Of a stretch of 64,000 nucleotides of DNA, positions 3,959-63,790 are shown one piece after another. This DNA is from Leucoraja ocellata. Its lineage: Eukaryota. Where the stretch lies: NCBI GenBank assembly GCA_036785375.1, contig JAWMAR010000006.1:13144001-13208000 (forward strand), given 5' to 3'. The notes beneath the pieces are model-generated. The model had not been told where the DNA came from and searched no databases. It was given only the letters and a program-made list of their open reading frames with translations. The translations under genes were made by a program, and so were the position numbers. How positions within the stretch are numbered: position 1 is the stretch's first letter; each line of letters opens with the position of its first letter.

Positions 3959-4912
3959 CATCAAATAAAAATCTTGACCTTGTCCATATCCCATGAATGA
4001 ATAATGATTTAGGTTGAGTCCTGGGAGAGTGGGGTTGACCCTTGAGGAAAGATTGAATAGAATGGTGCTATATTCCCTTGAGTTAGTGGAGAGGTAATTT
4101 CATTGAAATCCTTTGTCTTTTGTTAATGACTGCATTAATATTGCAGATTTAGTGTTGCAATAAGACTGTTCCAATGTAACAAATACTTAAAGGTCTCTGG
4201 AAGGAACAGCCACAGATTGGATGGATTTAAACCAATGATTCCAAATGGATCAGCTGGAAATTATCCATTAATAGAATCAGTTTCAGGACTGATACACTTC
4301 ATGCAGTCAGTCGCAATATCCTGAATTCAATTGGCAGTAGTGAGATCTATAGCAAGACATTTTGCTACTTAATGTAACTCCTCAAGGGGAATTGATTTCA
4401 ATGAGGATTTTAGATCTGCAGAGAACAGAGGTTGTTTTTTAAATTGTGCATATTATGTTTTTATTCATCTATGTTTAAGTACTTCCTAATTTGAGTTTTT
4501 TATATCATTAGTTTAAAGAAATCAGCATCTAGTTTAGTTGAGTTAAAGCATCAGGACCACGTGAGTAATTGTGGGCAGCAGGTCCTGCTAGCATGGTCAG
4601 ACCTATTATCTCATGCTCTTTAAATCTGAGACAATATATTTCCATAGTAGCGTGAAATCTGATTATCTAATAAACAACTTATTATCTCTCATAGATTATT
4701 TAAGCATATTGAGCTTTGGGGCATTTCTCATATGTCTCTTGCTGTGTCCTGATGTGATTCTAATCAGATGATGTAAATAATATCAACCATAAATGGACTA
4801 TGTAGATACTGAAATAAGCTCTGGGCATTATATTGTTGCGTTTTATTTTTCAGTCATGGTACAGAAATATGAATTCCATCTGAATTACAGGTCACTATAT
4901 TGTGTCTCCATT

Positions 4913-5320
4913 TCATAATCATAATCGTAATTTATTAGCCAAGTATGTTTTGCAACATACGAGGAATTTGGTTTGCCATACAGTCATACCAAAAAGGCAA
5001 CAAGACACACAACTACATAAAAATTTGGCATAAACATCCACCACAGCGGCTCCTCCACATTCCCCACTGTGATGGAAGGCAATAAAGTCTTATCTTGTTT
5101 TCTCCCACGGTCGGAGTAGTCGAACCATCCGCAGTCGGGGTGATTGAAGCTCCCGCAGCTGGCGATCGGAGCTCCCACGTCGGGGTGATCGAGGCTCCCG
5201 TGATTGGGGCGGTCGAAGCTCCTGCAGCTTAGAGCTCCCGAAGCCGCTCCCTAACCAAGGACCCCGAGCTCCACGTTATTAAAGTCCGCAGACCTCCGCG
5301 GTTGGAGTTTCTGGGGTCGA
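4913..5320 (-). mobile_element. Non-autonomous retroelement with GC-rich body and (ATTATG)n-like tail
   Basis: Short-repeat tail followed by a ...catacttggctaataaa 3' end on the minus strand; internal repeated gagctccc units; shares a core with 19163-20030. Confidence 0.6.
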
Positions 5321-6377
5321 TTTTAGAGATAAAAATACTGAAGGGATTTTCTATGTGGATGAACAAGTCTTAGAATTTATTTTAATGATATTGCCTTTGG
5401 AAAAAGGAACTGAAGCGAAGTTGACAGAGGTACTATTAGCATTCTGTGAGACACAATTACGTACAGTTAACTAACTGTGTAGGAGTACTAGTGTTTACTT
5501 AAATGATTCCTTGAAAAGATTGTCAGATTGATGAATGATGTCTCCATTCCAGGATTATGTTGAAACTGATGAGCTAAAAGAAGCTTCCTCGCCTTTATAT
5601 AGACTCAATGCTTAAGGGTCGTGACCTGAAACATCACCTATCTATGTTCTCCAGAGATGCTGCCTGATCCGCTGAGTGCTTTATATCTTTGTCAACCAGC
5701 ATCTTCAGTTTTTTGTTTATACTCTAGTTTGTGAAATGGCTGGATTGTGTTATGGGGAAAGGTTGGATCGGCTAGGCTTGTATTCACTGGAGCCAAAAGA
5801 GTATGACAATGACAATGAAGGAAAAATCAGATGTTTGAAGCCAAACAAGCCATATCTACGTTCATAAACAGTGATAGATGGATCTTATTCTAGAATTGAA
5901 TGTTTGTGTAAATAAAGGACAGGCTGTCATAGAACACTGGTCCGCTGTAAATAGATTGCAAGTGAATAAGCCAGCACAAAAAGTCAAGATAGTCTTTTCA
6001 AGTATAACTTGGAAAATTATGATAAAAGTATCATAGCCAACATTTCTGAGACTTGCCCTTCTCATTTCAGAACTGAATCAATCATTTATGAAATTTCAGA
6101 ATTTTGTTGAATTTATTTTTCCTCAAAGTTTTATCTTAGCGTTATATAAATTGTATTTGAGAAGGCATTTTTGTCTTTTAGTTCTGGCTTAAAATATATC
6201 AAAATAAAAGTAAAAAATGTGTAGGAAGGGACTGCAGATGCTTTTTTAAACCAAAGATAGACACAAAAAGCTGGCAGCATCTCTGGAGAATAGGAACAGG
6301 TGATGTTTCAGGTCGAGACCATTTTTGAGACCATAATTAAAACTGTTCATTTGCAATTCCAGCGATATTTTTTTTAA

Positions 6378-6533
<156 letters not shown>

Positions 6534-7157
6534 TAAGTAATTCTGAATTTCAAACATACTGTACATTTTACTTTCAAATTTGTTGTAGTTGATCGAGGCA
6601 TTTATCCCCAAACACTTATAACAGAATGTAGAAATTTTCAGGAAAAGGCAAAAATGTTCAATGAGTCATTCGTATCGACTTACAGAACAAATTCCCAGTC
6701 CTCTTTTCAAATCCTTTTGTGCAGCCCAGACCAAAGTATTTGTCAGTATTTAATGCGTTTGACCACATCATCTACCCAATTTTCTAAATTCATCCTATGG
6801 TATTTCCATAGCATGCATATAATGCTCCTTTTTGTTTTTATCAGATCAACCATTCTGTATCACTCTGTGGCTCTAAACCTTGTGTTCCTGATATGTTAGC
6901 CATTGTGGTATTGTTTGGTGAAACACAATGCCCATTTTGCAACATTGAAGGAGTAATACTGCTTCAGAACTGGTTTAGTGCCTGTGAAACAAAAACAAAA
7001 ATCTAAAAAGTGTGGTGTGCATCTAAATTGCTTCATCCCCAAGAGAACAGAGAAGAGAGTGTGTACTTTTTCTTCAATTATGAGTACATTAAAAAATGGT
7101 TCCATCGGTTAGCAAAGGTTAAAAATGAAACAGAACTATTATTGATTCAGAAAATAA

Positions 7158-7355
<198 letters not shown>

Positions 7356-7811
7356 TAGTTATCATTGTTTTGTCGAATGCTGTTTTACCTCTAGACGTTT
7401 AGTAATGCTACAATAAGGACAAAGCAGTCACATCTCCAATACTTCTATCCACATTTCTGAATATCTTATAGCAATTACATCATCTAACATTCTCAAAAAT
7501 AACTTGTACCCAGCTGTATTTAGAACTTGTTTTCACAGCTTTGAGATTTTATTTTAAATGTATCCTATGTCTTTTTTGTGAATGTAAGCAGAAATACACA
7601 GGGTGATAAATGACAAATATTTGCATAACCAGAAAAGACAGCCACAGTTAATTGAGCTTTTCCTGTAGTTTAGAAAATGTTATCTGCTATTCCTCTCTTA
7701 CCATCCCTGCTCTCATATCACTAAAAACCCATCCAACATCTATCATCAGTAAGAATATAGCCTCCTCTGCGTACCCACCACATTTAAATTTAAACAACAC
7801 ACATCAATGAA

Positions 7812-8095
7812 ACAGCATGAAAACAGGGTCGTTGGCCTGCCATGCCTGTACTGAATATCACAGGCCCATTTATGCTAATTCCATTTTATTCCCCTCACAT
7901 TCCCACTCAACTCTCTCCAGATTCTGCTGCTCATCTGCAAACTCAGAACAATTCACAGTGGCCAATTAACCTTTCATCCAGCACATCTGAAGCCTCCGGG
8001 AGAGACCCATGTGGTCAGAGGAAGAACTCCACATAACATTTAAGGTCAAAATTGAGCTGTGACAGAGGAGGTCAATCAACAGTGCCATTATGCTG
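7812..8095 (-). mobile_element. Degenerate HE1-type V-SINE
   Basis: Reverse complement of the SINE tail (acagcatgaaaacagg...) and V-domain remnants. Confidence 0.55.
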
Positions 8096-11000
8096 CTGAA
8101 CTGCTTTAGGCTTTATTTTAATTTATTGCTGCAGTGATCATTCTCAGAAATATGTAAGTTGCAACATTTTTCAAGCTAATATCAAGTGAAATTGTGAACC
8201 TACCATTTGAACTTTGAGCACCTTGTGGTCTAGATATATTAGTGTATCCAATTGGGCATTGCAATAGAATGTCAACTGCCAGTAGACCCCCGTGTCCACG
8301 GTTACAAGCATTTGTTGCAAGGCATCAGAACCTGTAAAAGTTTTAATGTGCTATTTGGAAGTCAGGAGTGAAGTTAGGTTCAGAGGTGCAAAGTGACCAG
8401 TAACCATAGGCTGGATCAGCCCCTATTCTGCATTTGAGATTGGAGGCAGGATCTAGGGATGGGTGTGGGATTGGGTTGGGGGATAGTAACTAAAGAGGGA
8501 TTACTTCTAACAGATTAACCAAGGAGGAAAGGAGCCCAAGGTCAGGCCAATAATCTGCCAAGGAGATGAAAAATTCCAGTCTATCTTCTGTGAGCCTATG
8601 AGCTTGGGTACAAGGCTCAAAGATGTTCTCCGGATGGGCTTTGATTAAGATTGTGCAAAAGATCTTGATGACTAACTTTTTATATTTTTTAGTTTAATCC
8701 TACGAACAGACACGCACTCACACAATCATGTTGAAATTCCATCACTTCTCTATCATGAATGTTTTAGTAATTTGAGCAATTTTGCTGCATCCCTCTATCT
8801 CTTACGAAGAAATTCAGTTGTGTCTCTTGATTTTCCACTGTCTTCTGTATACTTCCCAATTCATTTGGATATTCTCCCTTTACCATTGATTCCTTCTTAA
8901 TATGTTTTTATCTTGAACCTAATTATTTTATGCTGATATTTCTTAATTGTTCTCCTGCACTGTCATTTGCTGATGGTCCCACTTGATTTCATAGAATTTG
9001 ATTAATCACATTATTATTATTTATTAAATTAAAACTAATTGTATGAAAAAGTGTACTCAGGAACAACCCAGAAAATTCTTGTCACGTTAGTTTCACCCCA
9101 ACAAATCCGATCGTGATAATTGCACATTATTACCCCCATACCAAGGAATGTGACGGTGACTAGTGAAAACTAAATATCTGCTCCTTCCAGTGGATTAGAA
9201 CAAAAGTTGAGATGGCTAAGAATGGGGGACATCTCAGACGAAAGTGTAAAAATTGTAACGAAATTCTCCATAGAAACCAACTTAAAACAAAACAGTTGTG
9301 CACAATGCATCTTACACATTTCAGAGTTGAGCAGTTGAAAAAGTTTGTTAAATCTTTTGTTTTCATTTCCTTTTTCAGTTACTGTTTTTAAGAGTCTGAA
9401 TGTTGGTGTGAAGGCAGTCAAAAGAAAATGCCACAAGACCTGAGATACATTACCATACAGGTTTTTATTATTTTAAACAGTGTGTCTGTAGCGTACAAGC
9501 TTAGAGAAATTAAAGATCATATGCTTGTCTGTATTTCCTAAACAACATTCAACAGATTCTGGCTAACATAACAATCATCAAAAACATCTTAAGTTTTATT
9601 GACATAGAATTGTACTAATTTTATTTATCTTTTTAGTTATGAACAAAAGCATCTGTGTTACTAAATCTCTTATAAAAAATGTAATCTATATCCTTGAAAT
9701 ACAGAAAAATAATAACAGATTAGATAGGTAACTATAAATAGAATGTATATGAGTGTAAATCAATAAATAAAATGCAAGTTATATTAAATAATTCAACTAA
9801 TTAATAAAGTTAGCGCTTTTAGGTCACGGGGTTAGTTTTTGTAGGTAGCATATTTGTCTATTCATGCATTGTGCTGCGTAGGAGTATCGTTGAATTTCTC
9901 CAATTGAGAGTTTTTAATTCACAATAGTTTGCTTGGGGAAAGCACTGAATAGCAACAGACATTTCCCAATGCAGAAGGGGGTTGTGGAATAGTTGTACAG
10001 ATCTGGGAATTTGAACAAAATGAAAGCCCTCTGGACAACAGGTGTAAAATGGGTCACGTTTCCCTTACCTGGCCACTGGAGGCAGAAAAGCATGGACCCC
10101 GAGGTGAGCCTCGCAGCATCTGAGCAGAAGAATAAAAATTAAGAAGGCCAAACATTGAATCGAGCTCTGGAATGCAAGGATTTCTAGGATGGAAGCTATT
10201 AAAGGTTCAGTGAAGATTGAAATGTATGGTCAATGCTGTGAGCAGAGTTAATAATGATAACTTTATGCAGTTACCAAGGAATTGTTGCCAAAACTGGACA
10301 AAAAAATCCAGTTTGTTTTATAACCATGTTATGTCATCACTGGTTGATGGCATAGCCACTGGGTTGTTTTTGCGAATGTTTGGTTGGCATTGATAGCTTG
10401 TAAAATAACCTCTGTAATCATATTGGGCATATAGAAAATGAAGTACCTTAAATAGATTTTAGATACTGATTAGTTGCTTCACAATCTTATGATGAAACTG
10501 GCACTACTGTGTAGTGCATTTTATTTACATATGTTAAATTGTTAGGGAATAACAATTAGGAGCCAATTTGTTTTTTGCTCATTATATTGATTTTCCATGA
10601 TTATATTTTATTGTACAATAATTTAATATCCTCGTGAGATAGTTAAGGTATATGACATTGTGAAAGACTCTGGTAGACCAATAGGAAGATGGACCAATAA
10701 CTAGGAGACATGGAAGACTGATTTGAGGGGAACAGCTTTTTTTTTTCACTTAAGCGATGATAAGGATTTGGAACTTGCATACTGAAAAGGTGATAGGTAC
10801 AGAAATTCTCATTATATTTGAAAAGTACCTGCATGTATTATTAAAGAGGCATGGTCTATAGGGATATGGGGCTAAGGCTGAAAGATGGAATTAGGTCATA
10901 TAGTTTTATTTTCAAATTTGCACAGACACGGTGGGTTAAATTACCATCTCGTGTTGTAAATTTCTTAATGATTCCATGACCATTAATTAATTATGTTGAT

Positions 11001-14534: not shown

Positions 14535-16399
14535 TGACATGAACTGTGGGCTGCTGTGATCATCCAGCTTGGTTGAATGGTTTCTTACATGTCCTACCAT
14601 AGTTAAGCCTAAGGGGCCTTTGGGAGGGAAGGGCTTTGCAGATGGATCTGCACGGGAAATCTAAATGAATGGGACGTGTTTCCTAAGGCTGATGACTAGT
14701 AGAGCAAGTAAGTAGGAGTGGGACTGATCATTGAGACATAGGGTTGTATTCTAGATATAACGAGGAAGGGTGTGTTGTTGAGGCTGCAAATGTTGGGCAG
14801 TTCCATTTGAAGGAGTGGGTGAGCAAATGTTACATGTGGGAATCCAGTGGTTGGTGAGAAGAAATGTTTGGTCCCACTGATGGCTTGGGAAAAGTTGGTG
14901 ATCAGTAAGGTTAACTGATGATCCTTGGTTTCTGATTGGATGTCTTCATTTAATATTTAATATAGTTAATATTGAATATGGTAATGTTTATTTACATTTA
15001 ATGTTCATATCATTATAATATATTTATATAATTATAATGATTAATATTACTAATATTTAAATTGGAGGAAAATTGGTCATCTCCTTTGAAAATAGGAAAT
15101 AATGAGTTCCATACAAATTAAAGCTTCCAGGTTTATATTTTTTGCCAAATAGCCTCTGTCTTAACCATCTCAACTGTCACCTACATCTCCACATTCCACC
15201 TGCTTTGAAAGTATCTATCCAGGATTAATGCCTTGTGATGCAGTGTTTCTACCTGTGTCTGTGTGTGTATTTATTCTGGATATATAGCATTGTTTAAGAT
15301 GGCAGCATCTTTTCTGCAAGTCTCATTCTTTGCATACAAGGTTTTTATTAAATTCCAAAGGTAATGTGGATTGATTTATTTGAAACTCACATTATCAGCA
15401 ACCTTGAACATACTTTGATGAAATGGATATTTATGCATATGTATTTTTTTTTAAATAGGCATGAAATTGAAATGTTTGCTTATATAATTGTAATTGTATT
15501 ACATTTGTATTTGTTATTACAATTAGCTGTAACCAGGTAAAGTTAAAATGGTTACATTACAGTGAATGACCATAAATTCCAAGTAGTTACTTGGAAGAGT
15601 TCTGGTATTTGAGGAAGGATTCATAAACTATAATGTAATAAATTGATTTGGTGGTATATATTGCTTGGATTGTTCTCTATTTGTTGACATTATTCAGTAC
15701 AGTAATTGCTTCTGACTGACAGTAATGCTCTAGGCCATTGTAACTTTAATGCTGTTGAAACTTGGCTTTTCTTGGAAAAGTTTAACCTCCATTTTCTTTA
15801 GCAGAAAATTGTGCATTTTTTTAGTGCATTTCATTTTTGAGTTAACTAGAGTAGACGGATAGAAGAGGGATATGGACCAAGTGCAAGCAGATGGAACCTG
15901 CTTAGATTGGGCATCTTGGTCAACGTGGAATAGTTGGGCTGAAGAGCCCGTTTCCATGCTATATGACTCTGTGACTCTCTATGAGTACAACATGTATCAC
16001 AGCCAATTAATGACAGTGTTAAAAATGTCATTAGTGAATATTATCTTCGACGCGTAGACAGAAAATGTTGAAGATTCTTCTCTGGCCAGTTAGCTTTCAT
16101 GTAGATGAAAACAGAGTTAGCAATTTACGGTGTAACCCATCATCAAACTGCCTTAGTATTCCATTTTATATTCTGTGGAGTGTTTCGCAGGCTGGAAGGA
16201 ACAAAAAAAGCCTGTTTTCTCATGCTCTTCCACAAATACTTTGACCTGCCTTACAGACATTTTGTAGCTATTTAAATTATGCATGTACAATATATTACCA
16301 AGATCCAATAATAGTCATTGCATTAATTATAGTAAAATGTTTGCATTTTGATTGTGACTCTTTGCTAAAATGTTCTGATTTTGTGTATTTATGGATTAG

Positions 16400-16564
<165 letters not shown>

Positions 16565-16740
16565 TAAGTTCATGCAGCTGTTTTAATGTGAATTGTTGAA
16601 TACCGTATGTATTGTAAAATACGTTAGCGCTTTCACAAATATTATTTTTTTATTTTTGTTAATATAAGGAAGAGCATTTTAAACTGGTACTTCTGGCCAG
16701 TAGTGTTATAAATATTGCATTCTATATTTAAAAAAAAAGT

Positions 16741-16828
16741 CAAAGCGCTGGAGTATTTCAGCAGGTCAGGCAAATCTCTGGAGTGCATGGATAAGTGAGG
16801 TTTCAGGTCTGGACTCTTCTTCAGACTA
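16741..16828 (-). repeat. Penelope-associated terminal repeat with hammerhead-like core
   Basis: Minus strand reads CTGAAGA-AGAGTCCAGACCT-GAAA. Confidence 0.65.
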
Positions 16829-17539
16829 GGTTCTCTAGTAAAAGAACAGTAACCTGCAACATCACTTCAAATCACTAAAAATAAATTAATTGGCTGGCAA
16901 GGATGTGACTGTCATTTTTTATGGAATGACGCTAAGAGGATGTTTATTCTTTGTCATGTGAATTTTTGACATAATGGAAATGATATAGCCAATGTATGTG
17001 CTTTAAATAAGACCTTGGGTCCCTTGGTTTCACATCATAGTAATTGAACATTCAACTACTTGGCATTGGTTGCTATCCCTCAATTAAGGTTATATTTTAA
17101 CATTCCCTGGCATCTAAGCTCTACTGGATAATTGTTTTGAAGGAGAAACTTGGAGAATTGTGAGCAAGCTACTCTTAGGTTTCTTGCCGAATTAGCCATC
17201 ATTATTATTGTGATAGTGGGTATCAGTAAAGTGGAGATAAATCAGGGACAATGGATGGGAAAAGTTTGGGCGAACCGTGGAATATAATTGAACATTTTTT
17301 TTCTCCCGCTCAGTGCAACAGATTTTAATGCATAGTTATCACTGTACTCCAACCAAAAGCAATGAGGCCTTGTGTGGAACCATATGTCGCAGATACAAAT
17401 GATATTATTTTAAAACATTTTTAGTAAGTGGGACCTATTAGGTCCATTATGTAGGTCATTTATTTAAAATTAAAGTAATGGTATAACTATGCAGAAAGTT
17501 GGGTTAAAACAAAATCTCTTGAGGGGTAAAACAGCATTA

Positions 17540-17990
17540 AAATTTCAGTCAATACCCTTCTTCAGAACTGAAAATACAAAAAATCAGGTATATTTTATGT
17601 TGCACAAAGAGGAGACCAGTATAGAGAACTTAAAGAAATATATTTGGTAGTACATAGAGTGGAGATCGGGTCTGGATGCAGATGACAATACTTTTGGTGC
17701 TGTCTGGTTATTAGATGACTGGGTACATAGAGGGGAAAATAACCAAATGAACACACTATAACCAAGAAATGCAGAGCATGGCAGTTGCTGGATATCTCAA
17801 ACAAATGAGTATGTTGGGAATCCTTACAGTTCGAGTAGCATCTATGCAGAGAAAAACTGAGGAAGATATCAGAATCAGGCATATCTCACACAAATAGGAA
17901 AGGTTATATGGCAAAGATTGTCAACTTCAATATTAAGTCCAAAGGCTGCAACGAGATAAAAGATGAGGCAGTCACTCCTGATAAGGAAGA
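17540..17990 (-). mobile_element. Degenerate Penelope-like element 3' end
   Basis: Minus-frame LIF...GLNIEVDN resembles the PLE GIY-YIG C-terminal tail. It is followed by a CTGAAGA...GAAA motif at 17543-17565. Confidence 0.5.
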
Positions 17991-18409
17991 CGAGGCACCT
18001 TGTGGCAGTAACTCTTGTAGTCACCTGATTTACATTCGGTAAACAACATTCTGAATGCCAAATGTTTAAAAGAATAGATGTGAATTGGCGCTTCATATGC
18101 ACAGTGTCCCCACAAATGCTTATTTCCTCTATATTCCAATCGTGCTGAAGTGTCACTGACCTGAAAGCTTGATTTCTCTCTTTGTGGTAATGCTTGATCA
18201 CCTGATTATTTCCGGCACAGTGCTGGAGTGACTCAGTGGGTCAGGCTGCATATATCTGGATGACATGGATAGGAGATGTTAGGCTATTTATCCCTCCTCC
18301 ACAGATGACTAACCTGCTGAGTGTTTTTCTGTAAACCAGCATCTCTTTTCCCAGCACTTTCCATCTTTCTTTCAGATTTTCAACATTTGCAGTTTTGGAC
18401 CTCAGCTAG

Positions 18410-24719: not shown

Positions 24720-25680
24720 TAATAGAATTAATATTTAATGAATACAGATTTTGTAGTTTGAAACTAGGGAAAGTCGACCAAAATACATTCCTAAAGATTA
24801 AGACGTATCATCTGGAGTTATTGCTGATTAGAGGCTGGTTACCCTACGTTGACCAATTAGCACAAAGGATAGGAATTTCAAGCATAAATAACTTCTAAAC
24901 AATGTTTATGTGATCTTTTAAACTAGTTAAAAACCTTTTGTTGGAATATCATCTGCCCAAACAACTAGCCTGATCCCTTAACTGAATCAATCAACATTGC
25001 AATATTGTCCAATTATAGGATGTTGAAGAGATGCTCTCAAAATTAAGCACAAGAAAGCAAATAGGAATCTTTGGAAACATCTTGTTTTTAAATTGGAAAG
25101 ATACTGTTATAATTGGTGAGGATAAAATATTTGAATCATTCAGGACAAATTTATATAATGACGATTCGACGTGAATTGCAAAAAGAAGGGTATTTAAGAG
25201 AATTCAGTTTTGGATGATTAAACAGATTGCGTCTGAAAACCTATCACCTGATCCATTTTCTCCAGAGATGCTGTCTGTCCCGCTGTGTTATTCCAGCATT
25301 TTAAGCAAATTTCAGGTTGGAGAGGAACAGAAAATCAAACGAAAGTTGGTAAATCAGCTCCATTTTAAATCAGCTCCATTTTGTATGAATAGCTATTTCA
25401 CAATATTAGCATGCTGTGATTTCTTAATTATACACTTAAAATAGATCAGAGCAGCCCACTGAGAACATAGATTTGAATTATGTCTGTTTTTCAATGTAAG
25501 AAAAAAAGGTTTTCCTTAAAACAAATAACATGCTGCTGAGTAATGTTTCCAGCTTTGTAAAATGATTCTTATACATATGCAATATCTACAGGGCAACACT
25601 ATTAGAGTGCTGTTTGATGAAGGTATTTAAAAGGACAAAAAACAATCTTAGAAATCTTCAAACATATTTCATTCTCATAG

Positions 25681-40617: not shown

Positions 40618-40980
40618 GTAGGGATATCAAAATCTTATAGGATTTAAGGTACGCGTGCAATTAATCATGATCGGGTATATAAAGAAACTTAGGCAAAGAT
40701 ATTTAAGATATGGGTGTTTCTGTAAATAAGGGTACCAACCTGGCCAAATTTGAAAGTTATTAAAACACAATGAAATATCACAGGAATAAAAATGGGCCTT
40801 TTGAGCTAATTTGTGATCAAAATTTGACCAAAATTTAATATTTTTCAAAATTTGAAAATATATATATATTTTTAATTTATAAAACTAACAAGACATGGGA
40901 CACTTACTGATTTTGAAGCTCCCTTACAAAATGTCAGCACCTAACCCACGATGTGGCCCCTAGTTCATGCCAGGGTCAAT

Positions 40981-42062
40981 GCTTGGCATCACCACCTCCC
41001 TCTGCAATTGGACACTGGATTTCCTCACCAACAGACCACAGTCTGTTAGGATCAACAACCTCACGTCCTCCACTAACACTGAACACCGGCGTGCCACAGG
41101 GCTGTGTGCTCAGCCCTCTCCTCTACTCCCTCTTCACCTATGACTGCGTCCCTTAGTATGGCTCCAACGCCATCATAAAATTTGCCGATGACACAATGGT
41201 GGTAGGACTGATCAGGGACAACAACGAATCAGCCTATAGGGAGGAGATCCAGAACCTGGCAGCCTGGTGTACCAATAATAACCTCGTCCTCAACTCTAAG
41301 AAGACGAAGGAAATCATCGTTGACTTCAGGAAGACCAGAGGTGGCAGACATACCGCCATCCACATAAACGGGACTGAGGTGGAGCGCGTCTCCAACTACA
41401 AATTCCTCGGGGTACACATCTCAGAGGATCTGCCCTGGTCCCTCAATACCACCAAACTGATCAAAAAGGCGCAGCAGCGCCTTTACTTTCTGAGGAGGCT
41501 TAAGAAAGCTCACCTGTCCCCCCCAGACCCAACTTCTACCGCTGTACCATCAAAAGCATCCTGACCACCTGCTTCACGGTATGGTACAGCAGCTGCACGA
41601 CAGTTGACAGGAAGGCACTGCAACGGGTGGTGAAAACCGCTCAGCACATCATCGGTGCCCCGCTCCCTGCCATGGATGCCCTCCACCGCAAATGGTGTCT
41701 GAGACGGGCCGGGAAAATCATCAAGGACCCCTCTCACCCTAACCATGGACTGTTTGCCCTCCTCCCATCAGGGAGGCGGTACAGGAGCCTCAGGTCTCGC
41801 ACAAGCAGGCTGAGGAACAGCTTTTTCAATAACACCATTACACTGCTGAACTCACAGTCCCATCGCTAGCTATCTTTAGACTCTCCCTTTTGTATACATT
41901 TATTTGCCTATGTACCAGTTTAATTCATCCATAGTCCACATATTGTTAACCAGTATTTTTATTTCTACTATCTTGCACTATGACCAGACGCTAAACTGCA
42001 TTTCGTTGTACCTGTACACGTATTTGTGCAATGACAATAAAGTTGAATTGAATTGAATTGAA
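40981..42062 (+). mobile_element. Rex1/Babar-clade LINE, 5'-truncated and frameshifted RT
   Basis: [48 protein letters not shown]; (TTGAA)n tail. Confidence 0.92.
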
Positions 42063-48117: not shown

Positions 48118-48507
48118 GAACACAAAGTGCTGGAGTAACTCAGCAGGTAGGGCAGCATCTCTGGAGGACCCCTAGAGAGGTGACATTTTGGGCTGGGACC
48201 CTTCCTCAGACCCAGGTTTGCTACCGATGTTCTCACCCAGACGTCTGTCAACTATAGTTTCTTGTTTGCACTTCCCTTTGTTTATTTGTAGTGTTAAACT
48301 GAGGCACCATAAAATTTGAGCAAAAGTGCTGGAGAAATGCAGCATGTCAAGCAGCATTTATGGAGGGAATGAACAGGCGACATTTAGGGTTGAGATCCAA
48401 ATCGGTCTGAATCTGAACCCGAAATGTCTCAAACCAAAATGTTTCCTATCCATTCCCTCCACAGATATTGCCTGACCTGCTGAGTTACTCCTGCACTTCG
48501 TGTTTTA
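48118..48507. repeat. Cluster of Penelope-associated terminal repeats, including a fold-back pair (48321-48507)
   Basis: acaaagtgctggagtaactcagcagg... units in both orientations. Confidence 0.7.
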
Positions 48508-52183: not shown

Positions 52184-52529
52184 TAAACAATTTGTCCTTA
52201 TAGTTTCTATGTGTAGACGCTCTTACACTACAAGTTTTTCGAAGCAGCGCTATTCAATATAGAAATTCTACAGAGAAAAGTAAAATTAACAATGTTAGAT
52301 GTTCAGGAACATGAGATATTGGTGAAATATCTAGTATCAGATGACTGTGCATCATTACATATCATTTAGTTGGAGTGGTAAATGGATGAGATTATATTGC
52401 AGACATAATAAATTACAAATGCTGGAATCTTGAACAAAACACAAAGTGCTGGAGGAACTCAGTGGGTCAGGGCACTATTTGGGACAAGGGCATGTATTAA
52501 GATTGTGTTGCAATCTAATACATTCAGAC

Positions 52530-53225: not shown

Positions 53226-53468
<243 letters not shown>

Positions 53469-53669: not shown

Positions 53670-53890
53670 AATTGCAGAGGCCAGAATCTTGACTGAAACA
53701 CAAAGTGCTGCAGGATTTAAGTGAGTCAGGCAGCATCTGTAGAGGGAATTGGAACAAGCGACATTTCGGGTCAGGACCATTCTTCAGACTGATTAGAGTA
53801 GGGGGAGAAACCTGGAAAAGAGAAATGGGGCCAAAGCGTGGCAAGTGTTAAATGGATACAGGGTGGAGATGGCAGATGGGTGGAGTAAGT
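53670..53890 (-). repeat. Penelope-associated terminal repeat with hammerhead-like core
   Basis: Minus strand reads CTGAAGA-ATGGTCCTGACCC-GAAA-TGTC (53760-53787). Confidence 0.7.
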
Positions 53891-55569
53891 GTAATTCCAA
53901 CTAATGTACACCTTTATGGAAGATGAGAAAGCTTAGTTTCATTAGGAAAACCACTGGATGTCGACAGTAATAGAAAATTAAAGTTGCACGTGCTGGGAAT
54001 ATGAATAAAAATCGGAAATTGCTCAGCATGTCTGGTAACATCCGTGGAAGGAGAAACCCAGTAAGCACAATAAGCTTTTCAGTTTGTGACTACATCAAAA
54101 CTAGGAAGCTGAGAAAACACATTAGCTTTGGGTTACAGAGAGGGTCACTTGGCAGATGAGATGGGGTTGCATAATCACAGAGATTATCATTGATAGGGTG
54201 AAATCAGGAGATCCCGATGTTTAATGAACTATCTAGTGAATAAATTAATGTGCAATAAGAGAGAGACAGAAAACAAAGGGACCTATTAAAGTTCTGAAAT
54301 GCACGCCAGAACTGTTATTGAAACTGGAAATCTAAAAAGAAAATGCTGGAAATGTTGAGCATGTCCTCTGGAGTGAGGAAAACTTAGATAATGTTACCGA
54401 TTGATAATCCAAACCGGATATTTGATAGACGTGGTGCCAACATTATGATCATCGAGGTCCCAGTGTATCTAAGTCATTGTGCCCTTGAGAAGGCTGCAAT
54501 TATATTTTAGAGATTTTAAGATGCTGTCAGATTTATTTTTACACAGTATGTCAATTTCATACAATATCTATTCATCTGGATGTTCGTATCTTAATTATAC
54601 TGTGCTCATCAGTTTTTGACAAAAATCTAACTTGCTAACAACATTTTTACATCATTTGCTTGTATCTTCCTTTTGTATCCTCTACTTTATTCTAACATGT
54701 GAAATCAATAATGCCAATAGGAGAAGAATTCTTTGTCTAGGGTTGATCAAGAATCAATGGAAGCAGTGCGATCTAACATAGAAACAATTACTCCACGATG
54801 CTAGAGCAAAAATACTGCACAGATTGGAAATAGAAATAGCAAAAAGTTGCAAAATACTCAGCACATCAGACACTGATTGATTAAGAGAGAAACAAAGCAA
54901 CGTGTAAAATATATTGATTTGCAGTCATTTGCCACATAAATTGTGGATGCAAGAGCAAGAGAAAGGTTTTGTCGGGCATTGCCTGTATCTAGATCCAGCA
55001 ACACTGAATGATTTGCAATTCATTTTCCAAGTGGTGGCATTTTCACAAGGCTACTGGACTTCTACTTCAAGGCGATCATAGGTCGCTACTTTTGAAGTCT
55101 TACCAAATTGCTGTAGTGCACTTTGTAGAAAGTGCGAGCTGCAGCCTGGAGTTGCAGTGGTGGAGGAAATGAATGATTAGCAATGTTGCTTTGGTACCCT
55201 ATCTGTTGGTTGTTTGAGATGGTGCTGCACTCATTTAATCAAATTGGAAATATTCCACCGCACTTGTGCATTCATTATAGTTGATGGAATGGCTTTAGTT
55301 GTTAGTAGCAATTTGTGCCTCTGGGTACCCAGATTTTAACTTGATATATGTGCATTAGAAATATTGTTGAATGTCAGGAGAAGATGGTTAGACATGTCTA
55401 GTGCCAATGTTATTTCCCACTTTTCACCGCATGTTGAATGTTTCTAGCTGCAGGCAAGGATGATCTGAGTGCTGAAGGCATTTCAACACAGTGCAAAATC
55501 CTACTTCTGACCTTGCTTTGAAAGGACAGCATTGATAAATTAATACTGGGGAATCTGGATTTCATTGCC

Positions 55570-55765: not shown

Positions 55766-55871
55766 AGGTACTTGAAGGACTTGAGTAAGCTCGAGATGGT
55801 GCGGAAATGATTCACAGGAATGTTTCCTGGACCGGAGGGTTGAGTAATGAGGAGAGAATGGTTAGGCTGGA

Positions 55872-56040
55872 GATAGACACAAAATGCTGGAGAAACTCAG
55901 CGGGACAGGTGGCATCTCTGAAGGCATAGGTGATGTTTCGGGTCGAGACCCTTCTTCAGACTAGTGTCGGGGGAATGGAAAACGAGATATGTAGACAGTG
56001 ATGCAGAGAGATATAGAACAAATGAATGAAATATATGCAA
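55872..56040 (-). repeat. Penelope-associated terminal repeat, best-preserved hammerhead-like core
   Basis: Minus strand reads AGT-CTGAAGA-A-GGGTCTCGACCC-GAAA-CATC-ACC (55929-55962). Confidence 0.75.
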
Positions 56041-57029
56041 CTGTTTCTCCAGAACATAGACGGCAGAGAGGTGACCTTCTAAGGGCTTATGAAATATGAA
56101 GGGCAAAGATAGGGTAGATAGTCACAGTTTTCTTTTCCACGTTAGGATTAAAGTGGAACAGAGGGGTAAGTTTTTCACACAGAGAATGGTACGTACATGG
56201 AAAGATCCGTCAGAAATTGGGGTAGTGGCAGGTGCAATTATGTTGGCCAAAGGCCTGTTTTGGTGCTATATGACACAAGGGAGGGAAGGTTGGAGCAATT
56301 GGACTTATCAACACCAATATTAACTGGTTTCTTGGGTAGCTGGAAAATGCCAGTTGTAAATCTGAAAATAAATAGCTGTCGAGTAATTCCTTTCCTATTA
56401 TCTAATGGCATTAAAACAGCATTTTGTTTTTGCCTTAATCATGTTTTAAAAGTGCTGTGACAATTCAAATCAACATTTTCTAAGTTCCAAGAACACTCTT
56501 ATTGGACTTTATTTTACATTACTGTGATGTATCAGTTTCAGAAAGTGGTATCATTTTGACCTATTGCAAGATTACATAGATGCTGGCACATAGCTTTGCA
56601 GCACATGAGGCAGCCTGTAAAGGGAACTGAACAATATAAGCAGTACTCTTCCACAAATAGGAGAATATTGGTTCTTCAAGAACTGAAGTGAGGAGAGAAG
56701 GGACGAGTGCGTGGAAGGACCTGGAGACATTACCCATAGGAGGTGTGTTCTTTGTACAAAGGAGCAACACAGATCCTCAAGGACTTCAGACAGCCAGGCA
56801 CTTGTAAAAGCGGCTAGCTAGCCAGGGTTGTAATTAATATAATCAGCTTTTGGTAGGTACTTGGCTAGAAAGAGCATAGAGGGAAACAGTGTTAACGTAA
56901 GCTAATGGTTTTAATGTACGCATACATCACAGTTTCTAGGTTGAGGTGGGCCAAAGAGCCTGTTTCTATGTGGTGTACATTTCTGACTGAAATGAGTTTA
57001 ATTTATTAATTCTCCTGCAATTGCAAGAG

Positions 57030-57265
57030 TTGTTACACTTATCCCTATACCTCCTCCCTCACCTCCATCTAGTGTCCAATGTTCCCTTCTTTACATCAGC
57101 GAGACCAAGAGTAGACTGTTTTGTCCAACACACTTGTTTGCAAAGGCGTACTGGATATCCCGGTTGCTAACCATTTTTACTGTGCTTCCCGTTCCCATAC
57201 TGGCTTTTCTGATCTGAGCCTCCTCCAATGCCGGAGTAAGGCCACATACAAGCTGGAGGAACTAA
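57030..57265 (+). mobile_element. Penelope-like element GIY-YIG endonuclease relic
   Basis: Frameshifted LLYIxETKxRL followed by DIPVANHF...S(H)SHT...LLQCRSKATYKLEE. Confidence 0.7.
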
Positions 57266-57679
57266 ACCTCAACCTAGAAACTGTGATGTATACGTACATT
57301 AAAACCATTAGCTTACGTTAACACTGTTTCCCTCTAGATTTCATATTCAAGGCTTGCAACATCATGCCTGACATTAACTCATTTAACCTTTCTCCAAGAA
57401 TACATAGTGTGGCTTCAGCCCTTACTATGGTTTTTTTTTTTGTCACAGTTCCAGAGGTAGTCTGTTTATTGTTAACGTTTGGTAGTTTCTTGGTCTTGTT
57501 AATTAGGGCTTTATCAGCCCTGAGCCAGCTAACATTGACTCAATGCTTGACAAAAGTGCTGGAGAAACTCAGGGGGTGCGGCAGCATCTACGGAGCGAAG
57601 GAAATAGGCAGCTTTTCAGGCCGAAACCCTTCTTCCGACTGAACTCAATGCTTCCCTGTTTCCCTCGCCTTATATAGAA

Positions 57680-61285: not shown

Positions 61286-62026
61286 GTATGTCTGAGCGTA
61301 ATGTTGCCATTAATGGCAGCATTAGAATGTCTGGGCTTGAAACAACTGTTCAGTTGATACCTAAGTGGGGCATAAAAGAATCTAAAACTAAGCAACCCAA
61401 ACTGAGCAGTCCTTGTGCATGTTTTTGCAGCAAGCAGGTTTCTACAGATAATCAACACACAAAGTAGTGATTTGCTTGTTACATTTATAATTAGGGAGGA
61501 TTTTTTCATTTGAGTTAAAGAAAAGGTCTTTGCAAGACCCTGAAATGGAATTTCCTCTGAAATAATATTCAGTTTGTAAGGAGAGAAAAAAAAGTTTGAA
61601 TATCTTTGGAGGAATAGTAGCTTTTAGAAGATTTACAAAATCTATTGTTTTTGATAATATCACTGCTTGGCTACATAGTCTAATTTTTGAAGTCGCACCA
61701 ATTGGATTTAAACTCCCAACAAACTGAATTAAAGCATTTGTCATGCAGATTCGAATGTAGACTGGTGTCTGTTATTTTTAATTGCATCAAACTCACCAGA
61801 ACAGAACCAGTGGCATTATGGTGGCTGAAACATTGCTTGCACTGGGTTGGAGGGAGAGGAAATATTAACTGGTTAGATTTATGCATGTCACTCATGGCTA
61901 TCCCACTTAATAAATTAGTCGTTCACTGAGGCTCACTTCGCATACAGTGAGTTTTGCACCGAATGCTTTACACACAGTTAATAATCATAATTAAGAGGGC
62001 CTTCATATTTCTTTACAATTTTATAG

Positions 62027-62119
62027 GATCTGGTGTGGATGATCCGGTGGGAGAAGTATCTATCCACGTTGAGCTTTTCACTCATCCAGGAACTGGAGAG
62101 CACAAAATCACAGTGAAAG
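62027..62119 (+). CDS. unc13a: unc13a exon, C2C start: [31 protein letters not shown]
   Basis: ttatag| and |gttggt, 93 nt. Confidence 0.95.
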
Positions 62120-63584: not shown

Positions 63585-63790
63585 ACGAAACTGCAGGTGC
63601 TCAAATCTTGAGCAAAAGAATGTTCAGGAGAAATTCAGCAGGTCAGACAGCATCCAGTGGAGGGAATGGACAAACAATGTTTCAGGTCAGGACCCTTCTT
63701 TCAGACCCGAACCAAAACATTGCCAGTCCATCTCGTCACAAATGCTGCCTAAACTGCCAAGTTCCTCTAGCACTGTGCTTTGCTCAGATA
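63585..63790. repeat. Fold-back pair of Penelope-associated terminal repeats
   Basis: Minus-oriented unit followed directly by a plus-oriented unit; the core has one extra A (CTGAAAGA). Confidence 0.65.

Follow-up and report, generated by a model that had tools for sequence, protein, structure and literature searches.

Minimal hammerhead ribozymes (min-HHRs) were described in the terminal repeats (pLTRs) of metazoan Penelope-like elements (PLEs) by Cervera and De la Pena in 2014 (PMC4209133), where they are reported to be inactive as monomers and weak as dimers, and where a helix I of 2 bp is seen in the rows of Culex, D. virilis and Oikopleura. An optional tail of 30-40 bp, 5' truncation and inverted partners are hallmarks of PLEs (PMC8557442; PMC11167929). 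In PAc, an element of the Poseidon clade from Anolis carolinensis (Frangieh et al. 2024, PMC11167929), the start codon lies inside stem II, the tail marks two internal reverse transcriptase (RT) start sites, and the hammerhead cuts only with protein; uncut template was found in vitro. Animal non-LTR retrozymes are by definition tandem repeats whose expression yields circular RNAs, and in the known ones, tandems of 150-450 bp, the hammerheads are mostly canonical (PMC7229834); a preprint derives them from pLTRs and reports one active dimer among nine (bioRxiv 10.64898/2026.07.22.740005).

We compared these systems with a hammerhead-bearing repeat found in a 64-kb stretch of DNA (the window; Table 1). 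The repeat very probably comes from a PLE of very high copy number, of which it is the 3' terminal repeat (pLTR), and its copies in the introns of the host gene are 5'-truncated, decaying and probably inert. It most likely represents the PLE terminal-repeat hammerhead class described in 2014 (PMC4209133).

Table 1. Positions in the window of the hammerhead, the repeat copies and the neighbouring coding features.
Feature	Positions	Strand	Basis or remark
Minimal type I hammerhead motif	55929..55962	-	Sequence; sole strict descriptor match in window
Core C3-A9 (CUGAAGA), then extra A at 55952	55953..55959	-	Fits consensus CUGANGAH, PMC4209133 Fig. S3
Stem II, 4 bp GGGU/ACCC, CUCG tetraloop	55951-55948/55943-55940	-	Pair probabilities 0.74-0.86; RNAalifold consensus helix
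GAAA box; ACAU	55939-55936; 55936-55933	-	Sequence
G12-A14 and minimal stem III 15.1-16.1	55933..55939	-	ACAU in focal copy, ACGU in family majority
Predicted cleavage site, after C17 (55932)	55931..55932	-	Established hammerhead numbering
Focal copy, ~170 bp	55871..56040	-	Profile E 2e-26; read/contig coverage starts near 55870, stops at 56040
Copy keeping both core boxes; stem III AUGU; U at 10.1 breaks first stem II pair	53696..53794	-	
94-bp copy, begins ~6 nt upstream of C3, U4 mutated	57549..57642	-	
Copy with G12 to A change, 4-bp stem I	48118..48218	-	
Inverted pair of truncated copies, joined at 5' ends	48321..48505	both	
Inverted pair of copies, joined at hammerhead 5' edge	63620..63778	both	
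Copy with broken stem II pair, CC at 15.2/16.2	16736..16833	-	
Degenerate copy with optional ~35-nt tail (about 6225-6260)	6225..6333	-	Same tail as read extension before 55871
Copy truncated inside core, with tail	5614..5715	+	
Truncated copy, body only	18216..18280	-	Profile match
Truncated copy	25234..25304	+	Profile match
Truncated copy, 3' body only	52437..52472	-	Profile match
Very degenerate hammerhead-like remnant, related family	17510..17566	-	E 0.007; core pattern match
Degraded, frameshifted PLE-type GIY-YIG endonuclease C-terminal relic	57030..57270	+	P0001/P0002 (unnamed proteins) E 8e-5
UNC13A exon upstream of focal copy's intron	53226..53375	+	
Next mapped UNC13A exon downstream of focal copy	61966..62118	+	

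Re-reading of the sequence confirmed exactly the motif and the positions (55929-55962, minus strand) given by the initial annotation, and its classing as a PLE-type minimal type I hammerhead agrees with the published min-HHR consensus (PMC4209133). The hammerhead motif itself is real. Like the min-HHRs of that consensus, the motif of the family combines a CUGANGAH core and one extra, unpaired nucleotide after A9 with the G10.1-C11.1 pair that PLE min-HHRs require to close helix II, palindromic 15.2/16.2 positions, a GAAA box and an NUH cleavage triplet in the order GAAA-C-G-U-C without a loop 3, and a short helix I. Most copies are solitary, as in the published set, where such copies are thought to be truncated PLEs. 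Compared with that set, helices II and I, with 4 and 2 bp, respectively, are at the short end, and no chondrichthyan row was recognised in the Fig. S3 alignment of PMC4209133. A strict min-HHR descriptor matched only the focal motif on both strands of the 64 kb and nothing in any of 30 first-order Markov controls; when one core mismatch was allowed, it gave two matches against a mean of 0.4 in eight controls. On its own, the loose pattern CUGANGA..GAAA does not exceed chance level in the window (8 matches, 6.1 expected).

The initial annotation had also called stem I weak, and this holds: helix I of the focal copy reaches the minimum of at least 2 bp with exactly two pairs, its pair probability is near 0, and the third pair is unpaired in 7 of 18 alignment rows. 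In addition, the ACAU of the focal copy places a C-A mismatch in the stem III helix of a dimer. Because of this mismatch and of the 2-bp helix I with its pair probability near 0, the focal copy is probably catalytically inactive. The Rfam hammerhead models gave no match at E up to 5 in the window and none in four look-alike loci linked to open reading frames (ORFs), and the folding energy of the motif is not above that of shuffles (z 0.74). The missing Rfam match, the folding energy and the unpaired helix I would suit a chance likeness to a hammerhead in an unrelated repeat, but we regard this as extremely improbable: no control gave a strict match, all consensus features fit, and in another animal, where Rfam is equally uninformative and helix I pair probabilities are equally low, this motif is linked to an ORF.

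The repeat had been said to recur more than ten times, and a profile search of the window found 14 copies of a unit of ~95-170 bp at E<1e-5, the profile having been built from five window copies that are among the 14 counted. At E<10 this profile gave 21 rows; the reversed window yielded no copy. Weak matches at 16056-16151, 17510-17566 and 54022-54090 (E 0.007-0.7) may belong to older subfamilies of this terminal repeat. The focal copy consists of a pyrimidine-rich upstream part, the hammerhead and a downstream body of ~58 nt, without a tail; it is likely the 5'-truncated 3' end (pLTR) of a PLE. The pyrimidine-rich extension recurs in the copy at 53696..53794 and is missing in four of six inspected copies. 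Both core boxes are kept in only two of the 14 copies, and only one passes the whole descriptor.

On the minus strand at 55961-56000 and 53789-53830, a pyrimidine tract ending in YAG stands directly before helix I and resembles a splice acceptor; the intron end of D. virilis Penelope was mapped to the 5' end of helix I (PMC4209133). Splicing is not indicated in the window, since truncated copies still have the AG.

The 14 copies carry the hallmarks of PLE terminal repeats. First, they are truncated at varying 5' ends. Second, 5,278 reads of an oligo-dT run (X24) and 4,201 reads of a single-cell run (X23) extend past 55871 into a common ~30-nt sequence; this tail stands on two window copies and is absent from several others, in keeping with the optional 30-40 bp tail. 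Third, two pairs of inverted partners lie in the window, and opposite-strand joints occur in all four public runs. Finally, an 11-bp direct repeat (57538-57548, 57643-57653), probably a target-site duplication, flanks the copy at 57549..57642; no direct repeat of that kind was found at the focal copy. Because of the truncation, the tail, the inverted pairs and the 11-bp target duplication, we read the repeat as a PLE terminal repeat. As a minor observation, 5587-5613 and 57538-57548/57643-57680 show that two copies in opposite element orientation abut the same 11-mer and a common ~17-nt motif, which may be a shared target sequence or chance.

The direct repeat around a 94-bp copy also bears on another view, in which the ~95-bp unit is a discrete, SINE-like, non-autonomous derivative of the PLE terminal repeat, mobilised in trans as a monomer. 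Four of six inspected copies start within about 10 nt of C3, read depth drops about 30-fold at 55963-55965, and such a unit would also explain the four of six inspected copies that lack the pyrimidine-rich upstream part. However, the drop is largely clipping, as the focal copy does not share the majority letters at 55963-55964, and variable sequence, purine-rich on the plus strand, follows in thousands of reads (agreement 0.3-0.5). The fall in depth at 55963 was therefore rejected as a sharp 5' end of most copies. The starts of other copies are scattered, some inside the core and some 80-100 nt upstream, and we consider a discrete unit very unlikely.

To view the family beyond the window, four public runs were aligned to 55800-56100 at 80% likeness. 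In related species, 28,030 of 12.9 million records match in X24 and 35,244 of 17.6 million in X23, ~0.2% each, and two contig sets hold 54,441 (X1) and 92,684 (X4) matching contigs; the read depth pools many genomic copies of another species and is uninformative on expression at the UNC13A locus. With ~0.2% of poly(A) records in related animals and 14 copies in 64 kb, the view of an abundant elasmobranch family is supported. Extrapolated from these two figures, its abundance seems far above the 4,000-9,000 motifs of coelacanth and frog given in PMC4209133.

The same alignments, with variant letters taken from among the rows listed (40 of 114), bear out the proposal that stem III was ancestrally ACGU: the CpG form at 55934 makes up 60-66% of reads or contig depth in four of four runs. 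The family majority thus has the palindromic 15.1-16.1 of the PLE min-HHRs, and the focal copy, with ACAU, does not. The position of AUGU (53761-53764) is exact as given, and the reading of ACAU and AUGU as the products of CpG decay is likewise confirmed, the other decay product being present at 55935 in 6-18%. The catalytic G12 has been replaced by A in 18% of the reads of X24, in 18-22% of those of X23 and over 12-13% of the contig depth; among the 11 window copies with a letter at this column, three show the same change and a fourth has U. Since G12 is half of a CpG, it is lost at CpG-like rates, and its loss is consistent with neutral decay. In the seven window copies that cover the core, chosen for that reason, core divergence amounts to 5/77 and body divergence to 37/259 (p=0.08), which hints at conservation of the core over the body.

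Read ends do not pile up at the predicted cleavage site in the two RNA runs, at a threshold of 1/5 of local depth and in libraries ill suited to this purpose. At 55943-55975, X23 has ~7:1 reads on the non-ribozyme strand and X24 is balanced. This bias was rejected as a sign of cleavage, as it is strongest (~20-fold or more) over the purine/A-rich upstream part; for the same reason it likely reflects internal oligo-dT priming, the library orientation not being given.

The initial annotation had gone further and proposed a retrozyme-like family that may yield self-cleaving or circular RNAs. This part is not supported, given the dispersed monomers, the PLE-type truncation, the lack of a read-end pile-up, the decay of G12 and the antisense position of 10 of the 14 copies relative to the host gene. 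Like animal non-LTR retrozymes (PMC7229834; bioRxiv 10.64898/2026.07.22.740005), the repeat has a type I hammerhead, a PLE pLTR origin and a presence in chondrichthyans; retrozymes are found in the sole chondrichthyan sampled in the preprint, with a mean length of 363 bp. As a non-LTR retrozyme, the family would form tandem units that cleave as dimers, circularise and reinsert, and the intronic copies would be their monomeric offspring. Head-to-tail joints that reach back about 90 nt do occur, one of them in 31 contigs of X1 and 37 of X4. However, tens among 54,441 and 92,684 contigs are few, each joint has only 1-3 reads in X24, and joints also appear in a run guessed to be DNA, so that they fit partial PLE tandems. 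None of 31 TRF rows in the window is a tandem array overlapping a copy, and no 150-450 bp tandems with a hammerhead in each unit are present there. Whereas the defining retrozymes are tandem and mostly canonical (PMC7229834), the window copies are dispersed, truncated monomers with PLE tails; in place of a canonical hammerhead with a longer helix I and loop 1-loop 2 contacts, the motif has a 2-bp helix I and no loop 3. Eight of the nine Xenopus dimers tested in the preprint did not cleave. We therefore hold a retrozyme to be very improbable, noting that the RNA data comprise one oligo-dT and one single-cell run and that poly(A) libraries are ill suited to detecting circles.

Turning to the reading frames of the parent element, a degenerate pattern for the window hammerhead retrieved 22 loci from metagenome collections, in animal-like DNA of another host. 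In four of them (L002, L007, L014, L019) a same-strand RT/GIY-YIG ORF has its end 569-676 nt upstream, and the ORFs of L014 and L007 pass Pfam GIY-YIG; of the remainder, one has an RT piece on the other strand and 17 have none. The letters AC, the stem I partner of the GU before the core, are absent from the pattern and come next in 22 of 23 look-alike matches, which represent only about eight sequence types. The innermost pair of stem II (pair 4) is U-A in the window family and mostly C-G in the look-alikes. Overall, 87% of cells are paired, a value reached by 5 of 500 shuffles; stem II pairs 1-3 are fixed by the pattern in 10 of 18 rows, and this covariation is essentially one difference between two families. 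Since their downstream body does not match the window repeat, the look-alike hammerheads form a separate family. Unlike PAc, the ORF-linked look-alike, which is not the window family, has a Cys-rich linker between RT and endonuclease (EN), as in Neptune/Nematis (PMC8557442). In L003, L006 and L021, head-to-head inverted hammerheads are joined just upstream of the core, like the window pair at 63620-63778.

By analogy with these loci, we infer that a PLE ORF is linked to the elasmobranch family. The parent element would carry the hammerhead a few hundred nt downstream of an ORF for RT plus GIY-YIG. Reverse transcription would begin at one of two sites, ~60 and ~95 nt 3' of the cleavage site, giving ends without and with the tail, respectively, and would usually abort within 100-200 nt, leaving short stubs. 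The templates would be mostly uncut RNA, because the copies keep the whole uncleaved hammerhead across the cleavage site. The ancestral motif would cut, judging from other PLEs, only as an ACGU-palindrome dimer or with the element's protein. In these respects the family resembles PAc, which also has a pLTR hammerhead and an optional tail, shows no RNA-seq ends at the cleavage site and uses uncut RNA as template (PMC11167929).

The initial annotation had recognized PLE GIY-YIG relics at two places in the window. The plus-strand relic (57030-57270) is indirectly supported, as the unnamed protein P0001 aligns to the end of the L014 GIY-YIG ORF (E 2e-5); the hammerhead copies nearby are on the other strand, and it is contiguous with none of them. 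The second proposed relic (17540-17990) was not raised above controls by a frameshift-aware search, and by eye only 17925-17985 resembles an endonuclease C-terminus. A tblastn search of the window with the look-alike PLE ORFs gave no match, word-index protein searches with the relic and P0002 returned no full-length elasmobranch PLE, a search for the exact motif in genome contigs of viruses and prokaryotes gave 0 matches, and P0001 found no viral loci. A 71-nt inverted repeat (56877-56947/57266-57336; 99% complementary, 318 nt between the arms) encloses the plus-strand relic and could be a recent inversion, a template switch or an assembly feature.

The finding brings no new mechanism; what it adds to the PLE minimal hammerheads is an elasmobranch family with an extremely high copy number. 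No description of this family was found in the open-access literature, and the supplementary tables of the preprint (bioRxiv 10.64898/2026.07.22.740005) may include it. So many copies would permit a strong genome-wide test of ribozyme selection during transposition, and likewise a test of whether sense intronic copies are purged.

To judge from sequence likeness, the host is an elasmobranch UNC13A gene. Among 147 of 206 ORFs scanned, Pfam identified MUN and C2 exons on the plus strand, and among named proteins the C2 exon is most closely related to UNC13A from whale shark, skates, catshark and electric ray. There are 23 exon matches to skate UNC13A between 6384 and 63313 on the plus strand; identities of 88-92% do not separate shark from ray. 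The repeat had been described as intronic, and indeed 0 of 14 copies overlap any of these 23 matches: ten lie between mapped exons, two precede the first mapped exon of the window and two follow the last. Relative to UNC13A, the ribozyme strand runs antisense in 10 of 14 copies (p=0.18), and none of the four sense copies keeps the core. In the focal copy the ribozyme strand is antisense and therefore absent from the host pre-mRNA.

In a bolder reading, young sense intronic copies cut host pre-mRNAs by trans pairing of ACGU or with an element protein, intact sense copies are purged genome-wide, and the ~95-nt unit from hammerhead to tail is a minimal mobile ribozyme that uses the PLE machinery. 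With the family accounting for ~0.2% of poly(A) reads, such cutting of pre-mRNAs is conceivable, and the orientation counts, the 7:1 excess of single-cell reads on the non-ribozyme strand and the one 94-bp copy with a target duplication could be taken as hints; we judge this combination distinctly improbable. Apart from the hammerhead repeat, the plus strand at 40917-41561 carries degraded reverse transcriptase pieces (RVT_1 and an ALKBH8_N-like match), probably a LINE relic.
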